Assembly (NCBI RefSeq): GCF_056712565.1
Contig: NZ_CM160072.1
DNA: 64,000 bases
Direction: 5' to 3' (one strand)
In this document: one piece after another, positions 29,688 through 64,000 of the stretch
Numbering within the stretch: the stretch's first letter is position 1
How the letters are laid out: each line of letters starts with the position of its first letter
Position numbers and translations under genes: made by a program
Notes under the pieces: generated by a model
What the model was told of the DNA's origin: nothing
What the model saw: only the letters and a program-made list of their open reading frames with translations
Database searches by the model: none

Positions 29688-31016
29688 ATGGAAAACGCTA
29701 AAATGAATTCGCTCATCGCCCAGTATCCGTTGGTAGAGGATCTGGTTGCTCTTAAAGAAACCACCTGGTTTAATCCTGGCACGACCTCATTGGCAGAAGG
29801 TTTACCTTATGTTGGCCTGACCGAACAGGATGTTCAGGACGCCCATGCGCGCCTGTCTCGTTTTGCGCCGTATCTGGCAAAAGCATTTCCTGAAACGGCT
29901 GCCGCGGGGGGGATTATTGAATCAGAACTGGTTGCTATTCCTGCTATGCAAAAACGGCTGGAAAAGGAATATCACCAGCCGATCGCCGGGCAATTGCTAC
30001 TAAAAAAAGACAGCCATTTGCCGATTTCCGGCTCCATAAAAGCACGTGGCGGGATTTATGAAGTCCTGGCCCATGCTGAAAAACTGGCTCTGGAAGCGGG
30101 TTTGCTGACACTTGAGGATGATTACAGCAAACTGCTTTCCCCGGAGTTTAAACAGTTCTTTAGCCAATACAGTATTGCTGTGGGATCAACCGGAAATCTG
30201 GGGTTATCAATTGGTATTATGAGCGCCCGCATCGGCTTTAAAGTAACGGTGCATATGTCTGCTGATGCCCGCGCCTGGAAAAAAGCGAAACTGCGCAGTC
30301 ATGGCGTTACTGTCGTGGAATACGAGCAAGATTATGGTGTTGCTGTCGAGGAAGGACGTAAAGCAGCGCAGTCTGACCCGAACTGTTTCTTTATTGATGA
30401 CGAGAATTCCCGCACGTTGTTCCTTGGATATTCCGTCGCAGGCCAGCGTCTTAAGGCACAATTTGCTCAGCAAGGTCGCATCGTCAATGCTGATAACCCT
30501 CTGTTTGTCTATCTGCCGTGTGGTGTTGGCGGTGGTCCTGGTGGCGTCGCATTCGGACTTAAACTGGCGTTTGGCGATCATGTTCACTGCTTTTTTGCCG
30601 AACCAACGCACTCCCCGTGTATGTTATTAGGCGTCCATACCGGATTACACGATCAGATTTCTGTTCAGGATATTGGCATCGACAACCTTACCGCTGCCGA
30701 TGGCCTTGCGGTTGGTCGCGCATCGGGCTTTGTCGGGCGGGCAATGGAGCGTCTGCTGGATGGCTTCTATACCCTTAGCGATCAAACCATGTATGACATG
30801 CTTAGCTGGTTGGCGCAGGAAGAAGGTATTCGTCTTGAACCATCGGCACTGGCGGGTATGGCCGGGCCTCAGCGCGTGTGCGCATCAGTAAGTTACCAAC
30901 AGATGCACGGTTTCAGCGCAGAACAACTGCGTAATGCCACTCATCTGGTGTGGGCGACGGGAGGTGGAATGGTGCCGGAAGAAGAGATGAATCAATATCT
31001 GGCAAAAGGCCGTTAA
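29688..31016 (+). CDS. dsdA: D-serine dehydratase (PLP-dependent)
   Basis: 442-aa ORF with PLP-lysine region (SGSIKARGG). Confidence 0.95.
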
Positions 31017-31123
31017 TAACGTTTCAACGCAGCATCGCCATCCTTTCCCTGGGTGAGCGATGCTGCCGATGACGCAGACTTAAGATTCTGCCGTTTTACC
31101 TGCTATAGCCTCCTCTTTTTCCA

Positions 31124-32662
31124 TCACCCAACGCCTTTCGCTGTAAACGGCGGTTTCGCAAACCAAACCAAAACCGTAAGTAAGATAAAAGCAATAGCCG
31201 CCATACGGAAAATCTCATTTGCAGAAATAGAAAGTGACTGCTGAGTTATTTCATTATTAATTTCATTAAGAACTCCTGAAAGCGAACCATAGTATTTATC
31301 CATAATTTGTGACGATGAATTAAACACGGGGTTAAATTGATCGATGGTTGCTGTCAACTGACTATGGTGTAACGATTCGCGGCGTCCCCACAGTGTCATT
31401 GTCAACGACGTACCAACTGATCCTGACAAGGTGCGAAAAAAATTACTCATACTCGAGGCATTGGCAAATTTATTATCTGGCAAGCCTGAAAACGAAATCG
31501 TTGTTAAGGGTAAAAAGAAACAGGCAACGGCGAATCCCTGAAAAAACTGTGGCAAAATGATGCCTGTAAAATCAATCGTTGGCATAAATGTCACAGAACG
31601 CCAGTAATAGCAAACCGCATACATCAAAAAACTAAATGTCACCAACAACCGCATATCAATTTTGTTGCCATAACGTCCTATCAAAGGTGATATTAATAGC
31701 GGCATGATACCGATGGGCGCATAGGCAAGTCCGGCCCATATCGCATTATACCCCATCGTTTCCTGGAGTAACTGCGGCATAAGAACTATCGCTCCAGAGT
31801 AAAATAAATACGCGCATGTGATACTCACAATACCAATGGTGAAATTACGGGACTTAAACAAACTGAGGTCAAGAATCGGATTCTCTGAGGTCGACTCCCA
31901 AATGACTAAAGAGATCAGAGAAATAACTGATACTACTGTTAGTAGTATTATTGTACTCGAGTTGAACCAATCCAGATCGCGCCCTTTATCAAGCATAATT
32001 TGCAAGCCACCAACACCGAGCACTAACAGGGTCAGTCCTGGTAGATTCATTTTGACCGGTGAAGTCTCAGTTTCTCGTCCTTTAAGTAAGGTTAAGCATA
32101 ATGTCAGGACGATAATCCCCATAGGGACATTGATTAAAAATATCCAACCCCAGCTAAAGTTATCGCAAATATAGCCGCCCAATATCGGCCCACATATCGG
32201 AGCGATAATCACGGTCATTGACCATAATGCCAGAGCAAATGTTCTTTTTTCTGGTGGATAATTCCTTAATAATAAACTCTGTGACAGTGGAATTAACGGC
32301 CCCGCCATTAACCCCTGAACGACTCTAAAAAATATCAGCACATCAAGATTGGTCGATAAACTACACATTAATGAAGACAGCGAAAAAAAGGTTACTGAAA
32401 GTAAAAATAACCTTAATTCGCCTATTCTTTGTGCCAGCCTGCCGGTAACAGGGATCGCAATGGCATTTGCTACGCCAAACGAGGTGATAACCCAGGTGCC
32501 TTCGTCTGTTGATGCTCCCAGAAAGCCAGATATTGTCGGTATTGCGACGTTAGAAATAGTGGAATCCAACATTTGCATAAACGTCGCTAATGACAATGCA
32601 ATAGTGACGCACCATAACGTCCCACCGGTTAATGGTGCAGGAGTTGATTTAGTGATTGCCAT
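31124..32662 (-). CDS. emrY: MFS multidrug efflux pump EmrY
   Basis: 512-aa 14-TM MFS-like ORF downstream of emrK. Confidence 0.9.
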   Translation of the reverse strand: MAITKSTPAPLTGGTLWCVTIALSLATFMQMLDSTISNVAIPTISGFLGASTDEGTWVITSFGVANAIAIPVTGRLAQRIGELRLFLLSVTFFSLSSLMCSLSTNLDVLIFFRVVQGLMAGPLIPLSQSLLLRNYPPEKRTFALALWSMTVIIAPICGPILGGYICDNFSWGWIFLINVPMGIIVLTLCLTLLKGRETETSPVKMNLPGLTLLVLGVGGLQIMLDKGRDLDWFNSSTIILLTVVSVISLISLVIWESTSENPILDLSLFKSRNFTIGIVSITCAYLFYSGAIVLMPQLLQETMGYNAIWAGLAYAPIGIMPLLISPLIGRYGNKIDMRLLVTFSFLMYAVCYYWRSVTFMPTIDFTGIILPQFFQGFAVACFFLPLTTISFSGLPDNKFANASSMSNFFRTLSGSVGTSLTMTLWGRRESLHHSQLTATIDQFNPVFNSSSQIMDKYYGSLSGVLNEINNEITQQSLSISANEIFRMAAIAFILLTVLVWFAKPPFTAKGVG

Positions 32663-33825
32663 TAAAGTTGTCCATTATGCGAAATAATGTTGCTAATTTC
32701 TTTTTCTATCGGACTGGTATCGATAACTAAAGCCTTACTGGTATAAGCAGGCATGGACGTCACGGTTGAAGCCAGATCGGGCATCTCGGCAATGTCTTCA
32801 TTCTTCGTATCAATAGTAGCAGTCATCGATAAACCAATGCGCAAAGGGTGTTCCATGAGTTCTTTTGGATCCAGAGAAACTTCAACCGGTACACGCTGAA
32901 CGATTTTGATCCAGTTCCCTGTCGCATTTTGTGCAGGTAATAAGGAGAACGCATTGCCGGTTCCCATATTGATCCCTGTCACCCGACCATGAAACACAAC
33001 ATTTTCACCATAAAGATCGCTGATAATATTGACCGATTGACCAATCCGTACATCCGTGAGTTGTGTTTCTTTAAAGTTGGCATTAACCCACATTTGACGC
33101 GCCGGTACGACAGCCATTAACGATTGTCCGGGACTCACTGTTTCGCCGACCTGAACACTTCTTTGGGCAATATAACCGGTAACCGGACTCTTAATATCCG
33201 TACGTTTAAGCGCCAACCAGGCTTCTTTGGTTGCATCTGCAGCTTCAATGACTTGTGGCTGACGGTTTAATGGTGTGTTCATTACTAAAGCTTTATTCGC
33301 TTTATAAGCCTGGATAGCAGCATTCAATGCCGCTTTGCTACTTATTAACGTATCTTTGGTATGCTCCAGCGCTTCTTTTGAAATAACCCCTTGCTTCGCT
33401 AAAGGCACACGACGGTTATAATCTTCTAAAGATTGTTGATACTGAATACGTGCTGAAGCGACTTCGGCACTGTATTGTTTATCCTGTAAGTATAGTTTAT
33501 TCGTTTGCCGAACAATATTTGCCAGATTATTTTTAGCTTTATTGAGTGCGATAGTGGCATCAGTTTTATCCAGTGAAACTAAAATGTCACCTTGTCGAAC
33601 GTAGTTCGTATCTTTATGATTAACGACAGTGACACTGCCTGAGACTTGTGCAGAAATTGGATCTGCATTTCCCGTGACATAGGCGTCATCTGTACTAATC
33701 ATGTCTTTTAATTCCATTGACCAATAGGCATAGGCACCTGAAAACGCAATAAATAAAACTACCGCTAACAAAGCAAAATACTTTCTTCTGTCAGAATGTT
33801 TTTTATTTGAATTAACCTGTTCCAC
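32662..33825 (-). CDS. emrK: Membrane fusion protein EmrK
   Basis: 387-aa ORF with N-terminal TM anchor and coiled-coil/biotinyl-like domains; ATGA overlap with emrY. Confidence 0.9.
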   Translation of the reverse strand: MEQVNSNKKHSDRRKYFALLAVVLFIAFSGAYAYWSMELKDMISTDDAYVTGNADPISAQVSGSVTVVNHKDTNYVRQGDILVSLDKTDATIALNKAKNNLANIVRQTNKLYLQDKQYSAEVASARIQYQQSLEDYNRRVPLAKQGVISKEALEHTKDTLISSKAALNAAIQAYKANKALVMNTPLNRQPQVIEAADATKEAWLALKRTDIKSPVTGYIAQRSVQVGETVSPGQSLMAVVPARQMWVNANFKETQLTDVRIGQSVNIISDLYGENVVFHGRVTGINMGTGNAFSLLPAQNATGNWIKIVQRVPVEVSLDPKELMEHPLRIGLSMTATIDTKNEDIAEMPDLASTVTSMPAYTSKALVIDTSPIEKEISNIISHNGQL

Positions 33826-33997
33826 TATTATCTCTCATTTCGCATAGATGAAATTTATGAATTGAATGAAAAGAGTATTCATTCTTCATATCAAACACAG
33901 TGCATGTTTTGCACATTATCCCAGGAACGTTGGAGGGCTAATTTAAATGAGGTGCAAAAAAACAACAGAGGACTAAACCGCGGCTTTTGCAATACAA

Positions 33998-34014
33998 TTC
34001 TTACGCCTGTAGGA
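33998..34014. promoter_or_regulatory. Candidate EvgA box in the emrK-evgA intergenic region
   Basis: TTCTTACGCCTGTAGGA resembles the EvgA consensus TTCYTACA-N2-TGTRGAA (from memory). Confidence 0.35.
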
Positions 34015-34239
34015 TTAGTGAGAAAACTTATAGTGCTCATTTGAAACTATAAATCATCGGTATCATCCCTGATTTTATTGTTGACATTTTATTTATGCCG
34101 ACTATTTATATGGTATACTTGTCGAATTATCTTAAAGGAAGCTCAAATTTTCTTATTTTTATTGAGAAAATGAGATGATACCTTATGTCTGTATTACTAC
34201 AAGGAGAAGGGAAATGCTTCATTGCAAAGGGAATAATCT

Positions 34240-34854
34240 ATGAACGCAATAATTATTGATGACCATCCTCTTGCTATCGCAGCAATTCGTAATTTATTGA
34301 TCAAAAACGATATTGAAATCTTAGCAGAGTTGACTGAAGGCGGAAGCGCCGTTCAGCGGGTGGAAACACTTAAGCCTGATATCGTCATCATTGATGTCGA
34401 TATCCCCGGAGTTAACGGTATCCAGGTGTTAGAAACGCTGAGAAAGCGCCAATATAGCGGAATTATTATTATTGTCTCCGCTAAAAATGACCATTTTTAC
34501 GGGAAACATTGTGCTGATGCTGGCGCTAATGGTTTCGTGAGTAAAAAAGAAGGCATGAACAATATCATTGCGGCTATTGAAGCTGCAAAAAATGGCTACT
34601 GCTATTTCCCCTTCTCTCTCAACCGGTTTGTTGGAAGTTTAACGTCCGACCAGCAAAAACTCGACTCCTTATCGAAACAAGAAATTAGTGTCATGCGGTA
34701 TATTCTTGATGGCAAGGATAATAATGACATTGCTGAAAAAATGTTCATCAGCAACAAAACTGTCAGCACTTATAAAAGTCGCTTGATGGAAAAATTAGAA
34801 TGCAAATCACTGATGGATCTTTACACATTCGCACAACGTAACAAAATCGGCTAA
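34240..34854 (+). CDS. evgA: Response regulator EvgA (NarL/FixJ family)
   Basis: 204-aa ORF with receiver domain and C-terminal LuxR-type HTH. Confidence 0.95.
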   Translation: MNAIIIDDHPLAIAAIRNLLIKNDIEILAELTEGGSAVQRVETLKPDIVIIDVDIPGVNGIQVLETLRKRQYSGIIIIVSAKNDHFYGKHCADAGANGFVSKKEGMNNIIAAIEAAKNGYCYFPFSLNRFVGSLTSDQQKLDSLSKQEISVMRYILDGKDNNDIAEKMFISNKTVSTYKSRLMEKLECKSLMDLYTFAQRNKIG

Positions 34855-34858
34855 CCAC

Positions 34859-37800
34859 ATGAAGTTTTTACCCTATATTTTTCTTCTCTGTTGTGGTCTT
34901 TGGTCGACCATAAGCTTCGCAGACGGAGATTACATCGAATATCGTGGCATCAGTAGTAACAACCGTGTCACACTTGATCCACTACGTCTGAGCAACAAGG
35001 AATTACGTTGGCTCGCGAGCAAAAAAAATCTTGTGATTGCAGTACACAAGTCCCAAACAGCTACGTTGTTGCATACCGATTCGCAGCAACGGATTCGTGG
35101 TATTAATGCTGATTATTTAAATCTTTTAAAAAGAGCGTTAAATATCAAATTAACACTCCGGGAATACGCAGATCATCAAAAAGCAATGGACGCGCTGGAA
35201 GACGGTGAAGTTGATATAGTGTTATCACATTTAGTTGCTTCGCCGCCTCTTAATGATGACATTGCTGCAACTAATCCTCTGATAATTACCTTTCCGGCGC
35301 TGGTCACTACCCTTCACGATTCAATGCGACCGCTTACCTCATCAAAACCAGTAAATATTGCTCGAGTAGCAAATTATCCCCCAGACGAGGTAATTCATCA
35401 ATCATTTCCAAAAGCAACAATTATCTCTTTTACAAATTTATATCAGGCATTAGCATCCGTCTCAGCCGGACAGAATGATTACTTTATTGGTAGTAACATC
35501 ATTACCAGCAGTATGATTTCCCGTTATTTTACTCACTCCTTAAATGTAGTGAAGTATTATAACTCACCGCGTCAATATAACTTTTTATTAACCAGAAAAG
35601 ATTCAATCGTTCTTAATGAAGTACTCAATCGATTTGTTGATGCTTTAACAAATGAAGTTCGCTATGAAGTATCACAAAATTGGCTTGATACAGGAAACCT
35701 GGCCTTTCTGAACAAACCATTAGAACTCACTGAACATGAAAAACAGTGGATTAAGCAGCATCCCGATTTAAAGGTGCTGGAAAATCCTTACTCGCCACCC
35801 TATTCTATGACAGATGAAACTGGCTCAGTTCGGGGCGTGATGGGTGATATTCTTAATATTATTACCTTGCAAACAGGTTTAAATTTTTCTCCGATCACCG
35901 TTTCACATAATATTCATGCTGGGACACAGCTTAACCCCGGTGGATGGGATATATTGCCCGCCGCTATTTATAGTGAAGATCGAGAAAATAATGTTTCATT
36001 TGCTGAAGTCTTCATAACAACGCCTTACGTTTTTGTCATGCAAAAAGCGCCTGACAGTGAACAAACATTAAAAAAAGGAATGAAAGTTGCCATTCCATAT
36101 TATTATGAGCTTCATTCGCAATTAAAAGAGATGTATCCGGAGGTAGAGTGGATAAAAGTCGATAACGCCAGCGCTGCATTTCACAAGGTCAAGGAAGGTG
36201 AACTTGATGCTCTGGTCGCGACACAGTTAAATTCGCGTTACATGATCGACCATTACTATCCTAATGAACTTTATCATTTTCTTATTCCCGGCGTTCAGAA
36301 TGCATCACTTTCGTTCGCTTTTCCTCGCGGAGAACCGGAACTTAAGGATATTATTAATAAAGCACTGAATGCAATTCCCCCAAGCGAAGTTCTGCGCCTG
36401 ACCGAAAAATGGATTAAAATGCCCAATGTGACCATTGACACATGGGACCTCTATAGCGAGCAGTTTTATATTGTTACGACATTATCCGTTTTATTAGTTG
36501 GCAGTAGCCTTTTATGGGGATTCTACCTGTTACGCTCAGTTCGTCGTCGTAAAGTTATTCAGGGTGATTTAGAAAACCAAATATCATTCCGGAAAGCACT
36601 CTCGGACTCCTTACCGAATCCAACTTATGTTGTAAACTGGCAAGGTAATGTCATTAGTCATAATAGTGCATTTGAACATTATTTCACTGATGATTACTAC
36701 AAAAATGCAATGTTGCCATTAGAAAACAGTGAATCCCCCTTTAAAGATGTTTTTTCTAATACGCATGAAGTCACAGCAGAAACGAAAGAAAACCGAACAA
36801 TATACACACAGGTATTTGAAATTGATAATGGCATCGAGAAAAGATGCATTAATCACTGGCATACCTTATGTAATCTGCCAGCAAGCGAACATGCTGTTTA
36901 TATTTGTGGTTGGCAAGATATTACCGAGACGCGTGATTTAATTCATGCACTCGAAGTAGAGAGAAATAAAGCGATCAATGCAACTGTCGCAAAAAGCCAG
37001 TTTCTGGCAACAATGAGTCACGAAATAAGAACACCAATAAGCTCCATTATGGGCTTCCTGGAACTTCTGTCGGGTTCTGGTCTTAGCAAGGAACAACGGG
37101 TGGAGGCGATTTCACTTGCCTACGCCACCGGACAATCACTCCTCGGCTTAATTGGTGAAATCCTTGATGTCGACAAAATTGAATCGGGTAACTATCAACT
37201 TCAACCACAATGGGTCGATATCCCTACTTTAGTCCAGAACACTTGTCACTCTTTCGCTGCGATTGCTGCAAGCAAATCGATCGCATTAAGTTGCAGCAGT
37301 ACGCTTCCTGAACGCTACCTGGTTAAGATCGACCCTCAGGCGTTTAAGCAGGTCTTATCTAATTTACTGAGTAATGCTCTCAAATTTACTACCGAGGGGG
37401 CAGTAAAAATTACGACCTCCCTGGGTCACATTGATGACAACCACGCTGTTATCAAAATGACGATTATGGATTCTGGAAGTGGATTATCGCAGGAAGAACA
37501 ACAACAACTGTTTAAACGCTATAGCCAAACAAGTGCAGGTCGTCAGCAAACAGGTTCTGGTTTAGGCTTAATGATCTGCAAAGAATTAATTAAAAACATG
37601 CAGGGCGATTTGTCATTAGAAAGTCATCCAGGCATAGGAACGATATTTACGATCACAATCCCGGTAGAAATTACCCAACAAGTGGCGGCTGTCGAGGCAA
37701 AAGCAGAACAACCTATAACACTACCTGAAAAGTTGAGCATATTAATCGCGGATGATCATCCGACCAACAGGCTATTACTCAAACGCCAGCTAAATCTATT

Positions 37801-38452
37801 AGGATATGATGTTGATGAAGCCACTGATGGTGTGCAAGCGCTACACAAAGTCAGTATGCAACATTATGATCTGCTTATTACTGACGTTAATATGCCGAAT
37901 ATGGATGGTTTTGAGTTGACTCGCAAACTCCGTGAGCAAAATTCTTCCTTACCCATCTGGGGGCTTACAGCCAACGCACAGGCTAACGAACGTGAAAAAG
38001 GGTTAAATTGCGGCATGAACTTATGTTTGTTCAAACCGTTGACTCTGGATGTACTGAAAACACATTTAAGTCAGTTACACCAGGTTGCGCATATTGCACC
38101 TCAGTATCGCCACCTTGATATCGAGGCCCTGAAGAATAATACGGCGAATGATCTACAACTGATGCAGGAGATTCTCATGACTTTCCAGCATGAAACGCAT
38201 AAAGATCTACCCGCTGCGTTTCATGCACTAGAAGCTGGCGATAACAGAACTTTCCATCAGTGTATTCATCGCATCCACGGTGCGGCTAACATCCTGAATT
38301 TGCAAAAGTTGATTAATATTAGCCACCAGTTAGAAATAACACCTGTTTCAGATGACAGTAAGCCTGAAATTCTTCAGTTGCTGAACTCTGTAAAAGAACA
38401 CATTGCAGAGCTGGACCAGGAGATTACTGTTTTCTGTCAGCAAAATGACTAA
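34859..38452 (+). CDS. evgS: Hybrid sensor kinase EvgS
   Basis: 1197-aa ORF with periplasmic solute-binding-like domains, HisKA/HATPase, receiver and HPt domains. Confidence 0.95.
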   Translation: MKFLPYIFLLCCGLWSTISFADGDYIEYRGISSNNRVTLDPLRLSNKELRWLASKKNLVIAVHKSQTATLLHTDSQQRIRGINADYLNLLKRALNIKLTLREYADHQKAMDALEDGEVDIVLSHLVASPPLNDDIAATNPLIITFPALVTTLHDSMRPLTSSKPVNIARVANYPPDEVIHQSFPKATIISFTNLYQALASVSAGQNDYFIGSNIITSSMISRYFTHSLNVVKYYNSPRQYNFLLTRKDSIVLNEVLNRFVDALTNEVRYEVSQNWLDTGNLAFLNKPLELTEHEKQWIKQHPDLKVLENPYSPPYSMTDETGSVRGVMGDILNIITLQTGLNFSPITVSHNIHAGTQLNPGGWDILPAAIYSEDRENNVSFAEVFITTPYVFVMQKAPDSEQTLKKGMKVAIPYYYELHSQLKEMYPEVEWIKVDNASAAFHKVKEGELDALVATQLNSRYMIDHYYPNELYHFLIPGVQNASLSFAFPRGEPELKDIINKALNAIPPSEVLRLTEKWIKMPNVTIDTWDLYSEQFYIVTTLSVLLVGSSLLWGFYLLRSVRRRKVIQGDLENQISFRKALSDSLPNPTYVVNWQGNVISHNSAFEHYFTDDYYKNAMLPLENSESPFKDVFSNTHEVTAETKENRTIYTQVFEIDNGIEKRCINHWHTLCNLPASEHAVYICGWQDITETRDLIHALEVERNKAINATVAKSQFLATMSHEIRTPISSIMGFLELLSGSGLSKEQRVEAISLAYATGQSLLGLIGEILDVDKIESGNYQLQPQWVDIPTLVQNTCHSFAAIAASKSIALSCSSTLPERYLVKIDPQAFKQVLSNLLSNALKFTTEGAVKITTSLGHIDDNHAVIKMTIMDSGSGLSQEEQQQLFKRYSQTSAGRQQTGSGLGLMICKELIKNMQGDLSLESHPGIGTIFTITIPVEITQQVAAVEAKAEQPITLPEKLSILIADDHPTNRLLLKRQLNLLGYDVDEATDGVQALHKVSMQHYDLLITDVNMPNMDGFELTRKLREQNSSLPIWGLTANAQANEREKGLNCGMNLCLFKPLTLDVLKTHLSQLHQVAHIAPQYRHLDIEALKNNTANDLQLMQEILMTFQHETHKDLPAAFHALEAGDNRTFHQCIHRIHGAANILNLQKLINISHQLEITPVSDDSKPEILQLLNSVKEHIAELDQEITVFCQQND

Positions 38453-38458
38453 ATAGCG

Positions 38459-38486
38459 GCTCCCACAATGTTCAAATGTGGGAGCT
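38459..38486. terminator. Hairpin between convergent evgS and yfdE
   Basis: GCTCCCACA-10 nt-TGTGGGAGC followed by TATTT. Confidence 0.4.
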
Positions 38487-38507
38487 ATTTACCAGCACAT
38501 CTTACAT

Positions 38508-39653
38508 TTATGATGAGAACTCCTGGCGAATTTGTTCCCCATGCTGGTCGAGCGTTGCCGCTCCCGGCATAACATGCGGGTCCGCGCAGCCGCTGATTTT
38601 TATCGGATTACCCGGCATCATTATTCCCCCGGCTTCAATCAACATATTTCTCGCCTGAGTTTGTGGTAAATTAATGGCCTCAGCCACACTTAATAACGGC
38701 GCGACGGGCACACCAACTTCATGTATTCTGGCTAACCAAACTTCAGCTGCCTGCGTTTTTAACGTCCGCTCAATATATTGTTTAAGAATAGCCTGGTTTT
38801 GTACGCGTAAAATATTGCTGCTAAATCGGGGATCATTAACCAGTTCTGTAAGCTCCAGTGCCTGGCATAACACAGAAAAAAGCTTGTCATTACCACAACA
38901 AATCGTAATCGGCTTATCCTGAGTATCGAAAACATCAAAAGGTGCCATGTAGGGATGGCGATTTCCCAGGCGTTGTGGTGACTTCCCAGTCGCGATATAT
39001 GCCATCAGTCCATGCTCCAGAAAACTCAGAGTGGCATCAAACATCGCTATATCGACATGCGCCCCTCTCTGGCTCTTTTCGCGGCCATAAAGTGCACTCA
39101 CTATTCCACTGAATAAATAAACACCGCCACAGAGATCCGCAAGAGAGGTACCAACGCGCACTGGCGGAGCATCAGGGTATCCTGTTTCCATCATTATCCC
39201 GCTCATTGCCTGAATGATGGTATCGTAGGCAGGAGCATCTTTTAGCGGACCGGTATGTCCGAAACCTGACGATGAAGCATATATAAGGCGCGGGTTGATT
39301 TCTTGTAGCGTTTCCCATGAAAACCCCAGTTTTTCCATTGTACCTGGGCGAAAATTCTCAGCTAATACATCCGCTTGTTTAAGCATATTTATAAATATAC
39401 TTTTATCGTGATCATTCTTTAAATCAAGAACCACACTCTCTTTGCCATGATTAATAAAACTGTAATAGAGTGACTGTCCATCCACATAGGGACCAAATGT
39501 GCGGGTATCATCACCATGACCCGGCGGCTCAACTTTAATTACCCTTGCACCCATATTACAAAGAAGTTGAGTTCCGAAAGGCCCATTAAGGACATGCGTC
39601 ATATCGATAACTAATAAGCCTTCAAACGGCCCTTTGCATTCATTATTTGTCAT
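38508..39653 (-). CDS. yfdE: Acetyl-CoA:oxalate CoA-transferase (family III)
   Basis: ORF matches recalled YfdE; start at internal ATG (381 aa). Confidence 0.85.
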   Translation of the reverse strand: MTNNECKGPFEGLLVIDMTHVLNGPFGTQLLCNMGARVIKVEPPGHGDDTRTFGPYVDGQSLYYSFINHGKESVVLDLKNDHDKSIFINMLKQADVLAENFRPGTMEKLGFSWETLQEINPRLIYASSSGFGHTGPLKDAPAYDTIIQAMSGIMMETGYPDAPPVRVGTSLADLCGGVYLFSGIVSALYGREKSQRGAHVDIAMFDATLSFLEHGLMAYIATGKSPQRLGNRHPYMAPFDVFDTQDKPITICCGNDKLFSVLCQALELTELVNDPRFSSNILRVQNQAILKQYIERTLKTQAAEVWLARIHEVGVPVAPLLSVAEAINLPQTQARNMLIEAGGIMMPGNPIKISGCADPHVMPGAATLDQHGEQIRQEFSS

Positions 39654-39726
39654 TTGCTTATGCCTTGAAAAAAGCCGAAGGTGAAAAGACACTTCGGCAT
39701 TTATGTAAAATCAATAACATGATTAA

Positions 39727-40671
39727 TTATGAAACCAGTCGACTGACATAAATCCACAAAGGAGCCGTGACGACAAAACCCAGTACGCTCACAGCCAATG
39801 ACGCTGTACCAGTGCGGGTGTAGACATTAAACCGGCTGGCAATAATGATTCCGGAGAATGCCGGCGGTAATGCGCCTGCCAGTACCATCATCTGCAAATG
39901 TTCGCTATTCAAATGACATGCCATACCTACGAGAAGCAGCGCCAGTGGCATCAGAATCAGCTTCAGGAAAGTGTTATAAGCAATTTCGGCACTGAACTCG
40001 AATTTATGTGCAGCCAGAGTCAACCCCGCAGCGAATACCGCTACCCCTGAGTTAGCCTTCGCAATCAGATTAAAGGTTGGGTCCCATGCTGCCGGAATTT
40101 TTACCCCAACCAGCACCAGGATCGTTGCCAGAACAGGTGCCCATACTACTGGCTCCTTTGCCGCAGAAATTAATGCGCTCAGATTACTATTCTTCTTACC
40201 ATCCGCTCCTGAGGAAGGATTCAGCAAATACAGACCAATAGGAATAGTAATTGCGTTAACAATAATAGAAATAATTGCTACCACTAAACCTGTTGATACG
40301 GAATCACCATAAATAGGGTCGAGAACTGCAAACCCCAGGAATCCGATGGTAGGTGAGCCTGCAATTAATGCACATACTGCTGCTTCTGCATGGGTACGTT
40401 TAAAAAATTTGTAGCAACCAAACCAGGAGAAAAAGAAACATCCGACAATAACCACAAGTGATACAAGGGTCAGGCGAGTGTCCGCAAAAATCATTTCCCT
40501 GTTTGCCCGGGTAATAGAAACAAATAGGGCCGCAGGAAGAGCGTAGTTTAATACCAGTTTATTAAATGCCCGAGCTTGATCTTCTGAAAAAGTTTCTCGT
40601 CTGCCGCTAAAATAACCCAACAGCATGATTACGATAATAGGCAATAAATCGCCAATAAAAAATGTTAGCAT
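39727..40671 (-). CDS. yfdV: Putative transporter (AEC family)
   Basis: 314-aa polytopic membrane ORF between yfdE and oxc. Confidence 0.85.
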
Positions 40672-40740
40672 AATAGTATTTCCGATAAGGGTCCCCTCAC
40701 CATCGCATAATAAGTTGGCAAGAGGAGACGATGTCAGTAT

Positions 40741-42435
40741 TTAATTACCAGCGACTTGTTTTGGGTTAAGTTTGGTAATATGGCCACTTTCAGTTCCTGC
40801 TGCTGGGTCGATGACCACATTAATAATGGTCGGTTTGCGCGACTGAATTCCGGTGGTTAAAGCATGACGAAGTTCATCTGTCGTGGTGACGTTATAGCCA
40901 AGGCCACGAAACGCATCCATTAATTTGTCATACCTTGCATGGTGCAACAGATCCGTTGGCGATGGTGCACCAGCGCCGCTGAGATCAACACCGTCTCCTC
41001 TGTAGATGCCGCCATTATTAAAAATAACGATCGTCACCGGCAGGTTATATCGACAAATCGTTTCAATCTCCATCCCACTGAAACCAAAAGCACTATCACC
41101 TTCAATAGCGACAACCGGAGAACCAGAGGTCACGCTAGCACCGATGGCATAGCCCATACCGATGCCCATGACACCCCAGGTGCCACAATCCAGACGACGA
41201 CGTGGTTTATACATATCAATAATATTTCGTGCATTATCCAGGGTATTTGCCCCTTCATTAACTAAATAAATATCCTGGTTCTCGCGCAAAACATCGCGCA
41301 CGGCACTCAATGCATTAAAGTAATTTAATGGTTGGGTATCTGTACTTAACTTTTCATGCATTTTTTGTGCATTTTGCTGCTTGTGGATATTTAAAATATC
41401 GCGCCACACCAGTGGAGTCGTAAATGTGTTTTGTTTCAATTCTGCCAGCATACCTTGCATACTGGATGCAATATCGCCAACGACTGGCACAGCAATGGGG
41501 CGGTTGCTGTCAATTTCCTGCGGTTCAATATCCAGTTGAATAAACTGTGTATCTGCCGCCCATCCTTTTTTACCGTGTGCCAGTAACCAATTCAGTCGTG
41601 CACCAACAAGCATGACAACGTCAGCATTTGCCAGGGCAAACGAACGCGCAGCTGCCGCAGAAAGTGGATGCGTATCTTCGAGGATCCCTTTCGCCATAGA
41701 CATTGGCAGGAATGGAATCTGGGCACTTTCAATAAATTCACGAAGCTGTTCATCAGATTGTGAATACGCCGCGCCTTTGCCAAGGATAATTAATGGTCGT
41801 TCAGCTTTTGCTAAAAGCGAAATTGCGCTAGTGACTGACTTCGGGCATGGCAATAATGCTGGCGACGGATTTTCAACTTTAACAATCGTGGTTAACGCTT
41901 CGTCTTTTTCCATCGTCGCGGCCAGGACATTTGCTGGCAAATCAAGATAAACACCGCCAGGACGACCCGATACTGAGACCCGGATAGCGCGTGCCAATGC
42001 AATGCCAAGATCCTGCGGCTGATTAACGCGAAATGCTGCTTTGGCATACGGTTTTGCCGCATTCATTTGGTCCAGCTCTTCATAATCACCTTGCTGGAGA
42101 TCGACGATCGCGCGGTCGCTGGAGCCGCTAATCATGATCATCGGAAAACCATTTACCGTTGCATTGGCCAATGCGGTCAAACCGTTGAGGAATCCTGGCG
42201 CAGACACTGTCAGGCAGATCCCTGGTTTTTGGGTAAGAAAACCGCTTGCTGCAGCGGCATAGCCTGCCGACTGCTCATGACGAAAACCAATATAACGAAT
42301 GCCTTCCGCCTGGGCATGGCGCGCCATATCCGTCACAGGAATACCTACAACACCATAAATAGTGTCAATATTATTCTGTTTTAATGCTTCAACGATGATA
42401 TGCATACCATCTGTCATTTGAAGTTGATCTGACAT
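40741..42435 (-). CDS. oxc: Oxalyl-CoA decarboxylase (ThDP-dependent)
   Basis: 564-aa ORF with ThDP-binding motif (GDSAFGFSG...NN). Confidence 0.95.
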   Translation of the reverse strand: MSDQLQMTDGMHIIVEALKQNNIDTIYGVVGIPVTDMARHAQAEGIRYIGFRHEQSAGYAAAASGFLTQKPGICLTVSAPGFLNGLTALANATVNGFPMIMISGSSDRAIVDLQQGDYEELDQMNAAKPYAKAAFRVNQPQDLGIALARAIRVSVSGRPGGVYLDLPANVLAATMEKDEALTTIVKVENPSPALLPCPKSVTSAISLLAKAERPLIILGKGAAYSQSDEQLREFIESAQIPFLPMSMAKGILEDTHPLSAAAARSFALANADVVMLVGARLNWLLAHGKKGWAADTQFIQLDIEPQEIDSNRPIAVPVVGDIASSMQGMLAELKQNTFTTPLVWRDILNIHKQQNAQKMHEKLSTDTQPLNYFNALSAVRDVLRENQDIYLVNEGANTLDNARNIIDMYKPRRRLDCGTWGVMGIGMGYAIGASVTSGSPVVAIEGDSAFGFSGMEIETICRYNLPVTIVIFNNGGIYRGDGVDLSGAGAPSPTDLLHHARYDKLMDAFRGLGYNVTTTDELRHALTTGIQSRKPTIINVVIDPAAGTESGHITKLNPKQVAGN

Positions 42436-42488
42436 GATTAATAACCTCGAAATTTTTATAAATTGGGAGCCAGAAGCCCCCGTTAATA

Positions 42489-43739
42489 TCAGATGGCGTG
42501 GTTTTGCTTCATTGCAGCAATTTCATCGTCGCTATAACCCAGCTCCTGCAATACAGCAGCGGTATGTTCACCTAATAGCGGCGCAGCTTTAATATCCGGC
42601 GTAAAGGCAGAGAATTTCATTGGACAACCAACTGTCAGATATTTTCCACGCAACGGTTGTTCCACTTCGACAACACTGCCACTTTGGCGCAAAGAGGGAT
42701 CAAGTGAAATTTCTTTCATACTTAAAACCGGTGCACAAGGAATATCAAACTGAGTCAAATAGGCCACCGCTTCATGTTTATCAATAGTGACAGTGTATTT
42801 TTCGATTTCAGCAAAAATATCGAAAATATGTGGCTGTCGGGCATGGGCTGTACTGTATGCCGGATCGGTAATCCATTCTGGTTTGCCGATGGCTTTACAG
42901 GTGTTTTCCCAATTTTGCTCCTGAATAGTGAAATAAATATAGGCGTTAGGATCGGTTTCCCAGCCTTTACATTTCAGGATCCAGCCAGGCTGACCGCCCC
43001 CACCCGCATTACCACCGCGGGGAACTGCATCACCAAATGTGCCATTCGGATACTGCGGGTATTCTTCCAGATAACCCAATTTATCGAGACGCTGCTGGTC
43101 GCGTAATTTCACGCGGCAAAGGTTCAACACGGCATCCTGCATTGACATGGTGACTCGTTGCCCACGCCCCGTTTTTTCGCGATGCAGCAAAGCAGCAAGT
43201 AAACCGATCAGCAAATGCATTCCGGTGTTGCTGTCACCCAACGCTGCAGCGCTTACCAGCGGCGGACCGTCCCAAAAACCTGTAGTAGATGCCGCGCCAC
43301 CCGCTGCCTGAGCAACGTTTTCATAGGCTTTTACATTCACATAAGGCGAACACTCATCAAACCCTTTGATCGAACCAAAAATCAGACGTGGATTGATTTC
43401 TTGAATATGCTCCCAGGTGAAGCCCATATGATCAATGGCCCCTGGATGAAAGTTCTCGACTAAGATATCAGCTTCGCGGATCAGCTTTTCCATTACCTCT
43501 TTGCCTTCCGCTGTTTTGGTATTTAATTCAATAGAACGTTTGTTACTGTTAAGCATGGTGAAGTAAAGCGCATCGATATCAGGAATATCTCGCAGCTGGT
43601 GGCGCGTTACGTCACCAACGCCGGGACGTTCAATTTTAATGACGTCAGCGCCAAACCAGGCCAGCATTTGAGTACAAGATGGGCCAGATTGCACACCGGT
43701 GAAATCGAGAACTTTAATTCCTTGAAGTGGAGTTGACAT
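42489..43739 (-). CDS. frc: Formyl-CoA:oxalate CoA-transferase
   Basis: 416-aa family III CoA-transferase ORF upstream of oxc. Confidence 0.95.
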
Positions 43740-44250
43740 AGCAATACCTATTAGTTAATTAAATATGTGTTAATTTAGCGTTTATTTAAGGCATAACGCC
43801 TCTATAAATAATCTGCAAAATATCGTCGTAGCTGCACTCGAAATTTTTAAATTCCTGTATCAAGTGCTGAAAATCATTTCATCGCTACTTCCAATTCCTT
43901 TCTGCATGGTAAGTAGTGAGGACGAAAAGAAGAATATAATAAATATTGGCTCGCGGTAATCAGAGAGAGCCGCGACATTTGTGATGTTATTCTTACAACT
44001 GTAAGAAGTGTCAGTGATTTACAAGTAAGGTTATGATTACACTATTTAAAGCGTACCATAAAATATAACATAACAAATGATTTGTGATAATATGGGATTA
44101 TTGCGGTTTACTTTGAGGAAGATAAAATGCGAGTTTATAGAACCGCGAGCGCCAAATAATTTTATGACCACAACCTGTCGTATTGTGGTCATAAAAAATT
44201 GTCGACTGGAGGGAGTTAAATCCTTTACCTCAATATATTGCCTGTCAGGT

Positions 44251-44886
44251 TTAGTTCACAAACAGTGCTTCGCTATCAACGATGATTCCATCTTCCGCAC
44301 CTTTAAGCGCCAGGTTTGCCTCGTAGTATTGCTTTTTATCAAGCAGTTTCTGCGCATCAGCAAGTGCATTACGAGTCTGTTTAAGCGGCATCAAATATTG
44401 GTTTTCCATTACACCAACACCGGCCAGGCGAAGCTCTTCCATTGCCCCCTTTTTATCCCCTTTCGCCATTTTTTCGTTGGCAATTTTTATCGCGGCTTCT
44501 TTTTCGGGGGTTGCTACATAACTCTCAGAAATTCCGACAGATGCATTAATGACAATATATTGGTCATCATTGACGTTGGTCTTTTTACCTAGCTTAGCGA
44601 ACTTTGCCCATTCGGTACTATCATCTGACAGCAAAGCGGAAGCTTCATTGGTCAGTTCTTTTGCCTTTTCCGGATCGCCATGAAACAGAGCCAGGCGCGC
44701 TACCTGCACGTCACGCATCGCATATAAACCTTGTTCAGAGATACGCTCTGCTGCCGCTGCCGTTTTCTGGGTTTGCTGAACTTGCTGAGTTTGCTGTTGT
44801 GCCGCTACCGGTGCATTATCAGCAGCCCATACAGTTGAAGATGCCAGAATTGCTGTGACCATCGTAGCCATAATTAAACGTTTCAT
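44251..44886 (-). CDS. yfdX: Periplasmic protein YfdX
   Basis: 211-aa ORF with signal peptide; K-12 synteny. Confidence 0.85.
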
Positions 44887-45181
44887 ACTTACCTCATTCT
44901 TTAACAGTTTTAGAAAACGCCGCCATCATATTGGGTGAGCATGAAATGAGAAATCAGAGAGCAACGGACATTTTGAAAGGGTTATCTTACAACTGTAGTT
45001 ATTATCGCAAAGCGGCATTTAGTCTTACAGTTGTAGGAATATGCTTCCTGTCACAGAGAACTATTCTTATATACCAAAAAGAGATGTCATTTATTATATC
45101 GATGTAAATACTGATTAATTATATGTAAATACAGCAATAACGTCGTAGGTTTTCAGTGAACCATTTTCAGGATAACTTTCT

Positions 45182-45457
45182 ATGAAAGTAAACTTAATGC
45201 TTTTTAGCTTATTTTTATTGGTCTCTATTATGGCATGCAATGTTTTTGCATTTTCTATTTCTGGTGGTGGTAGTGAGGCGAGCTATAAAGAGACAGAAAA
45301 AACGTCAGCGATGACGACAACTCACTCTACAAAAATTCAGCCATCACAGGCGATTTTGTTAAAAATGAGAGAAGATGCGCCACCATTAAACCTCACAGAA
45401 GAAATTCCGCCCCCTTTTCCGACAAAGGCGAATTATCTTATCCATCCTGTGCGATAG
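45182..45457 (+). CDS. ypdI: Lipoprotein YpdI
   Basis: 91-aa ORF with signal peptide and lipobox (MAC); K-12 synteny. Confidence 0.7.
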   Translation: MKVNLMLFSLFLLVSIMACNVFAFSISGGGSEASYKETEKTSAMTTTHSTKIQPSQAILLKMREDAPPLNLTEEIPPPFPTKANYLIHPVR

Positions 45458-45533
45458 CGTCTGTCACACGGCAGGTGAACAATCATGTCTGATGCTGATG
45501 TGAACACCTGCCCAAATGAGCCATCCTGACCCA

Positions 45534-63530: not shown

Positions 63531-64000
63531 ATGGACCGCGTCCTTCATTTTGTACTGGCACTTGCCGTTGTTGCGATTCTCGCACTGCTGGTAAGCAGCG
63601 ACCGCAAAAAAATTCGTATCCGTTATGTTATTCAACTGCTTGTTATCGAAGTGTTACTGGCGTGGTTCTTCCTGAACTCCGACGTTGGTCTGGGCTTCGT
63701 GAAAGGCTTCTCCGAAATGTTCGAAAAACTGCTCGGATTTGCCAACGAAGGGACTAACTTCGTCTTTGGTAGCATGAATGATCAAGGCCTGGCATTCTTC
63801 TTCCTGAAAGTGCTGTGCCCAATCGTCTTTATCTCTGCGCTGATCGGTATTCTCCAGCATATTCGCGTATTGCCGGTGATTATCCGCGCAATTGGTTTCC
63901 TGCTCTCCAAAGTCAACGGCATGGGCAAACTGGAATCCTTTAACGCCGTCAGCTCCCTGATTCTGGGTCAGTCTGAAAACTTTATTGCCTATAAAGATAT
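63531..64000 (+). CDS. nupC: Nucleoside:H+ symporter NupC (N-terminal part, runs off window)
   Basis: [36 protein letters not shown]... with GGAG Shine-Dalgarno; continues past window end. Confidence 0.9.

Follow-up and report, generated by a model that had tools for sequence, protein, structure and literature searches.

The DNA analyzed here, a 64,000-nucleotide window of contig NZ_CM160072.1, contains at 31124–38452 the genes of an efflux pump, emrY and emrK, and, transcribed divergently from them, the leader evgL and the two-component regulatory genes evgA and evgS (Table 1). This segment is very probably the canonical Escherichia coli emrYK / evgL-evgA-evgS locus in its phylogroup-B2 (UTI89/UM146-type) form, with positions 33998–34015 as an operator for the response regulator EvgA and with the pump and regulatory genes forming part of a probably anciently acquired AT-rich block that extends from emrY to yfdX. 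Published work already covers this locus and its regulator, including the binding motif, the leader peptide and how the B2 allele behaves. All of the findings correspond to what has been described in E. coli K-12, Shigella and uropathogenic E. coli; the locus is real but ordinary, and its correct recognition matters little in itself. An earlier note on this DNA had likewise called the segment ordinary for E. coli, and its gene identities, AT-richness and EvgA-box reading all hold.

Identity of the locus

Genes were identified using protein-family models (NCBIfam) and DNA comparison. EvgA gave a full-length match to the equivalog NF007419 at 437.9 bits (cut-off 251), and EvgS was aligned over residues 1–1197 of 1197 to the equivalog NF007420 at 2886 bits (cut-off 1995). 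EmrK scored 484 bits on TIGR00998, the EmrA/EmrK family (cut-off 390.8), and EmrY 570 bits on TIGR00711, the DHA2 family (cut-off 230). The pump genes, which encode a DHA2 permease with 14 transmembrane segments and an EmrA/EmrK-family adaptor, overlap by 1 bp at 32662 and form one operon. At the DNA level, 31000–38600 was 100% identical to B2 E. coli chromosomes (UM146, APEC O2, ATCC 11775), which carry the same gene names in RefSeq; with the NCBIfam matches, this identity confirms the assignment as emrKY-evgAS. Colinearity with K-12 extends across the window from torI to pyrS, with 96.9% identity, and the K-12 emrK-evgA region has the same gene order and an EvgA protein that is 100% identical (204 of 204 residues).

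EmrY and EmrK also match the EmrB and EmrA models of the EmrAB-TolC system along their full length, but both fall under threshold on the specific models (EmrY 762 on the EmrB-specific model, cut-off 925; EmrK 494 on the EmrA-specific model, cut-off 563). EmrKY is the paralogue under EvgA control. EmrKY is reported to make no contribution to antibiotic resistance unless the pump is overexpressed (PMC6393483); the earlier description of the segment as a drug-resistance module needs refining on this point.

The EvgA box in the emrK-evgA control region

The motif TTCTTACGCCTGTAGGA, which had been described as resembling the EvgA consensus, was located at exactly 33998–34014, and the full inverted repeat comprises 18 nt, to 34015. 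It reads TTCTTACG-CC-TGTAGGAT and has 2 mismatches to inverted TTCYTACA half-sites 2 bp apart (TTCYTACA-NN-TGTARGAA, 16 specified positions). When the window was searched with TTCYTACANNTGTARGAA, which we take to be the EvgA consensus, allowing at most 2 mismatches, 3 matches were obtained against 0.07 expected, and none of 100 shuffled sequences reached 3. The other two matches lie upstream of frc and upstream of yfdX, and all three precede reported EvgA targets. An EvgA binding site in the K-12 emrK-evgA intergenic region was reportedly found by Tanabe in 1998 and Kato in 2000, and Masuda and Church are said to have described an 18-bp inverted-repeat EvgA motif in 2003.

The same position was reached by an unbiased scan, in which each 18-mer of the intergenic region was scored against the K-12 sequences upstream of further genes reported as direct EvgA targets. 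First place went to the words at 33996–33998 (81, with other 18-mers of the region at 73–76), and the sites recovered were TTCTTACAGGTGTAGGCT at ydeP, TTCTTACAGCTGTAGGCA at safA, TTCCTACTTATGTAGGAA at yegR, TTCTTACAACTGTAAGAA at frc and GTCTTACAATTGTAGGAA at yfdX. The region upstream of gadE was left out of this motif set because its best match was only 11/18. A weight matrix built from the five recovered sites gave 17.8 bits at 33998, the third-highest score among ~64,000 positions; away from the control regions of evgA, frc and yfdX, the highest score was 9.2 bits. A separate repeat search picked out the frc box together with the stronger of the two yfdX boxes as a 19-nt inverted repeat pair.

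K-12 has the identical 18-mer (K-12 positions 2483513–2483530), with flanks that match for at least 20 bp in both directions, and the intergenic region as a whole is 98% identical (414 versus 415 bp), differing elsewhere by nineteen substitutions and one 1-bp indel (20 of 415 alignment columns), which include changes in the evgA leader and the evgL ribosome-binding region. The intergenic region was found in 5398 of 5426 complete E. coli genomes. A divergent Escherichia locus (L008, EvgS 90% identical) has a perfect box, TTCTTACACCTGTAGGAA, within more variable surroundings, and orthologous loci assigned from the source names of their flanking proteins have TTCTTACACGTGTAGGCA in Yersinia frederiksenii/vastinensis, TTCTTACATGTGTCATCA in Klebsiella variicola and TTCCTACATCTGTAATAA in a Rahnella-like organism. 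Across six sequences from four genera (mean column identity of the alignment, 71%), no variation was seen in the left half-site or in the TGT of the right one. The distance from the box to the emrK start codon is 178–188 bp among the orthologous loci of Escherichia, Yersinia, Klebsiella and the Rahnella-like organism, and that to evgA 205–240 bp; here, the distances are 181.5 bp and 233.5 bp, respectively.

A chance near-palindrome in AT-rich intergenic DNA, without regulatory role, would be expected to look imperfect, and two of the specified positions do depart from the ideal repeat; such DNA also gives many weak matches, as the scores of other 18-mers of the region illustrate. It also weighs against the operator reading that support for the consensus TTCYTACANNTGTARGAA comes from its re-derivation on the target-site sequences. 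Chance is nevertheless a scarcely credible explanation, given the excess of matches at no more than 2 mismatches and their position before reported EvgA targets, the gap of the matrix score to the best one outside known EvgA control regions, and the conservation of both position and half-sites in four genera despite the low mean column identity of the intergenic region. The likeness to the EvgA consensus is therefore upheld, and EvgA probably binds exactly at 33998–34015.

Published work agrees with this reading. EvgA-bound inverted repeats precede yfdX and yfdWUVE (PMC3720670), and early work is summarized to the effect that EvgA has a binding site upstream of evgAS and controls that operon as well as the divergent emrKY (PMC5573083). 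Direct regulation of emrK by EvgA has been described (PMC5706723), and the box lies in the divergent region upstream of emrK, a promoter whose dependence on EvgA is documented (PMC5706723, PMC6393483).

Control geometry and leader

Phosphorylated EvgA (EvgA~P), as a NarL-family dimer, would bind both TTCYTACA half-sites in the divergent control region and activate emrKY from a class-II-like position, the box center lying ~41.5 bp upstream of the putative emrK start and the bound protein replacing the missing -35 element. A -10-like hexamer occurs exactly 20 bp past the box on the emrK side, as TTTAGT here, TTTAAT in L008, CATTGT in Yersinia and GATAAT in both Klebsiella and the Rahnella-like organism, and the same spacing from the box is found for TATAAT at yegR, CAGAGT at ydeP and ACCAGT at safA. 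Two points speak against this arrangement: no convincing -10 was found at the 20-bp spacing from the frc box or the stronger yfdX box and, since the emrK start is predicted from sequence alone, the -41.5 geometry depends on the weak hexamer TTTAGT.

On the other side of the control region, the evgA promoter elements listed in Table 1 are conserved among Escherichia sequences, and the extended -10 is consistent with a leader that begins at -114 relative to the ATG (~34126), the position used as the sigma-S start site in PMC11210196. A consensus promoter scan of the window returned 20 promoter-like sites against 21.4 expected, and its rules were such that the evgA promoters were not picked up. 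The box would lie ~108–120 bp upstream of the evgA promoters, so any evgA autoregulation from it would act at a distance.

A second reading would make the box primarily an autoregulatory operator of evgAS, with control of emrKY secondary or exerted through another site. One summary of early work has EvgA bind "upstream from the evgAS operon" (PMC5573083), and the copies of evgAS on E. coli plasmids that are without emrKY retain the box. A review also states that EvgA~P positively autoregulates evgSA (PMC11644481), which counts against assigning the box to emrK, and the position of the box neither supports nor excludes it. The geometry points the other way, the ~108–120 bp to the evgA promoters comparing with 41.5 bp and a conserved -10-like hexamer on the emrK side, as does the conservation of the distance to emrK when that to evgA varies. 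Expression of evgA was, moreover, flat under inducing conditions where emrK responded: induction of emrK in macrophages needs EvgA and leaves evgA mRNA unchanged (PMC6393483), and evgA fusions were unresponsive to mild acid (PMC11210196). The unchanged mRNA and the unresponsive fusions agree with a box devoted chiefly to emrK, and a primarily autoregulatory role is improbable.

The evgL stop codon overlaps the evgA start codon, and the homologous position in K-12 is annotated as evgL (b4781). Translation of evgL and evgA is coupled, and CsrA represses evgA through evgL (PMC11210196). Just upstream of evgL, the Shine-Dalgarno/GGA region has two single-base changes relative to K-12 (AAGGAG for AGGGAG, and GGGAAATG for GGGAGATG). 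On the minus strand, a short hairpin (GTGCA-N5-TGCAC) followed by a T-rich tract was noted at 33900–33914, within what is presumed to be the 5′ leader of emrK; K-12 has it too, and it is not conserved in L008. A search with Rfam at gathering thresholds returned no RNA family in the window.

Base composition and extent of the AT-rich block

The guanine plus cytosine (GC) content of 31124–38452 is 40.7%, and that of the emrK-evgA intergenic region is lower still (Table 1), compared with 48.0% for the whole window and 51.8% for the core genes at 46.1–64 kb. Only 84 of 56,672 stretches of equal length have a lower GC content, the minimum starting at 31181. The drop is strongest at third codon positions, where GC (GC3) is 0.36–0.42 in emrY, emrK, evgA and evgS and 0.50–0.63 for lpxP through mntH. 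By these measures the segment is as AT-rich as had been stated.

Its limits, however, are not those of the pump and regulatory genes. At the dsdA/emrY junction, GC falls from 0.54 to 0.41 over ~500 bp, with the step at ~31.0 kb, whereas beyond 38452, where the AT-rich unit had been taken to end, low GC3 persists through yfdE, yfdV, oxc, frc and yfdX (0.40–0.43) and ends at ~45–46 kb; GC is back above 0.5 at ~46.2 kb. Since low GC3 reaches yfdX, the compositional unit is emrY to yfdX, ~14 kb, and this block has the atypical composition and sharp boundaries looked for in genomic islands. Two further local GC minima were seen in the window, one at 22001–23000 (0.395, prophage early region) and one at 44750–45500 (0.37, the yfdX-ypdI intergenic region with the yfdX EvgA boxes).

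Distribution in other genera and on plasmids

The locus is present in 5412 of 5426 complete E. coli genomes, and EvgSA is listed among core-genome two-component systems in a 2024 review (PMC11644481). When EvgS residues 1–700 were used as the query, an E. coli cluster (33,752 members) was followed by a steep drop in identity, to 83% in Yersinia, 64%, 52–56% in the Rahnella-like organism (56%) and K. variicola (54%), 41–43%, and ~35–38% in Klebsiella proteins. A 551-bp contig in a Terrisporobacter petrolearius assembly (L009) also encodes EvgS residues 25–207 at 94% identity and is most likely Escherichia contamination of this Firmicute assembly.

The nine-gene block emrY-emrK-evgA-evgS-yfdE-yfdV-oxc-frc-yfdX is intact in Yersinia, at a K. 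variicola locus (L088) and in the Rahnella-like organism, with unrelated flanks in each genus, a patchy distribution in differing contexts that was observed in a small sample. In Yersinia, arsRBC adjoins the block at one end, and at the other end are genes for a DUF3302 protein and an adaptor. In the Rahnella-like organism (contigs L090–L092), the flanks are smpB, a D5-type primase and slp on one side and hdeD-hdeA on the other; there, the block sits with further acid-fitness genes (slp, hdeD, hdeA). The GC content of the block is 41–43% in Escherichia and Yersinia and 48–51% in Klebsiella and the Rahnella-like organism.

Plasmid copies were also found. A 378-kb K. variicola plasmid (CP103421.1, L087) carries an evgAS-yfdEVUWX segment flanked by insertion sequences (IS), with emrKY replaced by IS elements. 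A tblastn search against plasmids placed evgS on 47 records, several of which, at 4.8–4.9 Mb, are evidently mislabelled chromosomes and about twenty of which are E. coli plasmids of 57–123 kb. On one IncFIB multidrug-resistance plasmid, p89_MLI23-1 (NZ_CP116911.1, 31372–35976; L094), an evgA-evgS fragment 97.7% identical to window positions 33908–38512 has an IS1 copy just upstream and adjoins qnrS1, blaCTX-M-15 and blaTEM-1; its box differs solely in the spacer.

Origin of the block

We favor ancient acquisition followed by fixation: the emrY-yfdX block, carrying its own EvgA boxes, would have been acquired horizontally long ago, before E. coli diversified, and would now belong to the species core. 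Its presence in nearly all complete E. coli genomes means that any acquisition predates the species; the direction and the timing of the transfer are inferred.

Several observations weigh against an acquired block. The locus does not vary in presence among E. coli strains as an island would. No integrase, IS element or flanking direct repeats of the block were found in the window, and a search of the boundaries for direct and inverted repeats returned only chance pairs and the frc and yfdX EvgA boxes. ARAGORN found no tRNA gene in the window; the argW attR remnant at 27066–27080 belongs to the neighboring prophage, with dsdCXA between it and the block. The GC content of the block in Klebsiella and Rahnella partly tracks the host. 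In a species-wide EvgS scan, generic receiver-domain patterns dominated and one useful locus (L008) was among the matches listed, so that absence from other genera is not shown by it.

These observations suit vertical inheritance, in which low GC would reflect local constraint (membrane or periplasmic composition, silencing by nucleoid proteins, or mutational bias) and the distribution would reflect repeated loss elsewhere, with no horizontal acquisition: the genes are nearly universal in the species and listed as core genome, mobility genes and boundary repeats were not found in the window, and GC varies by host from 41–43% up to 48–51%. Such constraint sits poorly with a drop that is strongest at synonymous third positions (GC3 0.36–0.43 versus 0.50–0.63) and with the sharp dsdA/emrY step. 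Inheritance by descent also sits poorly with the unrelated neighborhoods in the Yersinia, Rahnella-like and Klebsiella genomes, with the IS-flanked segment on the K. variicola plasmid and the IS1-associated evgAS fragment on E. coli IncFIB resistance plasmids, and with a sensor half of Yersinia EvgS that is 83% identical to that of E. coli, though EvgS is unusually variable within E. coli itself, diverging pairwise by up to 5.43% among ten isolates. We regard vertical inheritance throughout as unlikely, at about one chance in five put loosely, and prefer ancient acquisition. The earlier note had gone further in calling the module a known horizontally acquired one. A horizontal origin is favored by the composition, the patchy genera, the differing flanks and the plasmid copies, but among the literature searched no paper was found that calls emrKY-evgAS horizontally acquired, and its presence in E. 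coli is core-like and not island-like.

A tentative extension, to which we give somewhat less than an even chance, is that the nine-gene block with its own EvgA boxes is a self-contained, transferable acid/oxalate-response cassette that has moved between families of Enterobacterales and is still picked up by plasmids, as in the IS-flanked K. variicola copy and in the evgAS copies with IS1 on E. coli IncFIB CTX-M-15/qnrS1 plasmids. If so, plasmid-borne evgAS could restore or change EvgA-regulon signaling where the chromosomal EvgS ignores acid. The occurrence of emrY to yfdX as a unit in other genera, partly on plasmids, is a modest lead for comparative genomics.

The EvgS allele and the phosphorelay

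EvgS of this strain is identical to that of UTI89 (WP_001331804.1) and shares 1157 of 1197 residues with K-12 EvgS, from which it differs at 40. The precomputed Pfam domains are SBP_bac_3, HisKA, HATPase_c and Response_reg, with Hpt on record for orthologues. Relative to the K-12 EvgS/EvgA system, which senses mild acid (pH about 5.5–5.7) and alkali metals, the EvgS length, the end-to-end equivalog match and the evgL-evgA coupling are retained. The circuit thus appears intact, and its natural signal may differ from mild acid. Roggiani et al. reported that UTI89 and most B2 strains tested fail to activate EvgA reporters at pH 5.7, that these strains are sensitive to acid during exponential growth, and that MG1655 evgAS rescues them (PMC5706723). 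Because the EvgS found here is the allele reported as unresponsive, the term "acid-resistance module" used earlier may not describe behavior in this strain. Annotating this evgS as "acid-sensing" may overstate the function of the allele.

BvgS/BvgA of Bordetella and KvgS/KvgA of Klebsiella pneumoniae are homologous systems, each a hybrid kinase with two periplasmic Venus-flytrap domains and a NarL-type partner, and yfdX also neighbors kvgAS. They differ from EvgAS in regulons and signals; the distant Klebsiella relatives are 35–38% identical over EvgS residues 1–700, and the periplasmic region of BvgS ~25%.

Features of the window

Table 1. Coordinates of the emrY-yfdX block and of its control elements (positions in the 64,000-nucleotide window)
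Feature	Position	Strand	Description	Basis
emrY	31124–32662	-	Major facilitator superfamily (DHA2) permease of the EmrKY-TolC pump, 512 amino acids; GC3 0.419	Open reading frame; TIGR00711; RefSeq
emrK	32662–33825	-	Periplasmic adaptor subunit, 387 amino acids; GC3 0.356	Open reading frame; TIGR00998; RefSeq
emrK/evgA divergent control region	33826–34239		414 bp, 32.6% GC	
Putative emrK -10 hexamer	33972–33977	-	TTTAGT; predicted start at ~33963–33966	Prediction only
EvgA box	33998–34015	None	18-bp inverted repeat TTCTTACGCCTGTAGGAT	Sequence; consensus search; weight matrix; conservation
evgA promoter elements	34081–34119	+	TTGACA (34081–34086), 16 nt, TATTTA (34103–34108); extended -10 TGGTATACT (34111–34119)	Read from sequence
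evgL	34214–34243	+	9-codon leader open reading frame, MLHCKGNNL	Translation
evgA	34240–34854	+	NarL/FixJ-type response regulator, 204 amino acids; GC3 0.42	NF007419
evgS	34859–38452	+	Hybrid sensor kinase, 1197 amino acids, B2/UTI89 allele; GC3 0.37	NF007420
yfdE, yfdV, oxc, frc, yfdX	38508–44886	-	EvgA-activated oxalate/acid genes completing the AT-rich conserved block; GC3 0.40–0.43	RefSeq
EvgA box upstream of frc	43990–44007		Perfect box TTCTTACAACTGTAAGAA	0 mismatches
EvgA box upstream of yfdX, weaker	44984–45001		Center 38 bp from that of the stronger box	3 mismatches
EvgA box upstream of yfdX, stronger	45022–45039		Center 38 bp from that of the weaker box	1 mismatch

A P22-like prophage occupies positions 1–27080 of the window, with portal, P22-type capsid and terminase genes, lambda-like cII, cro, Q and nin genes, and genes for Kil, cIII, an anti-RecBCD protein and Ral. 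It ends with torI (26793–26993) and a 15-bp remnant of the argW 3′ end, CTGCAGGGGACACCA, at 27066–27080. The corresponding site in K-12 is occupied by an unrelated cryptic prophage, CPS-53; the window and K-12 are colinear from 26742 onward. In the near-identical UM146 record, nupC (window ~63531–64000) and a TolA-like gene of the prophage (~22000–22600) are annotated as frameshifted pseudogenes.

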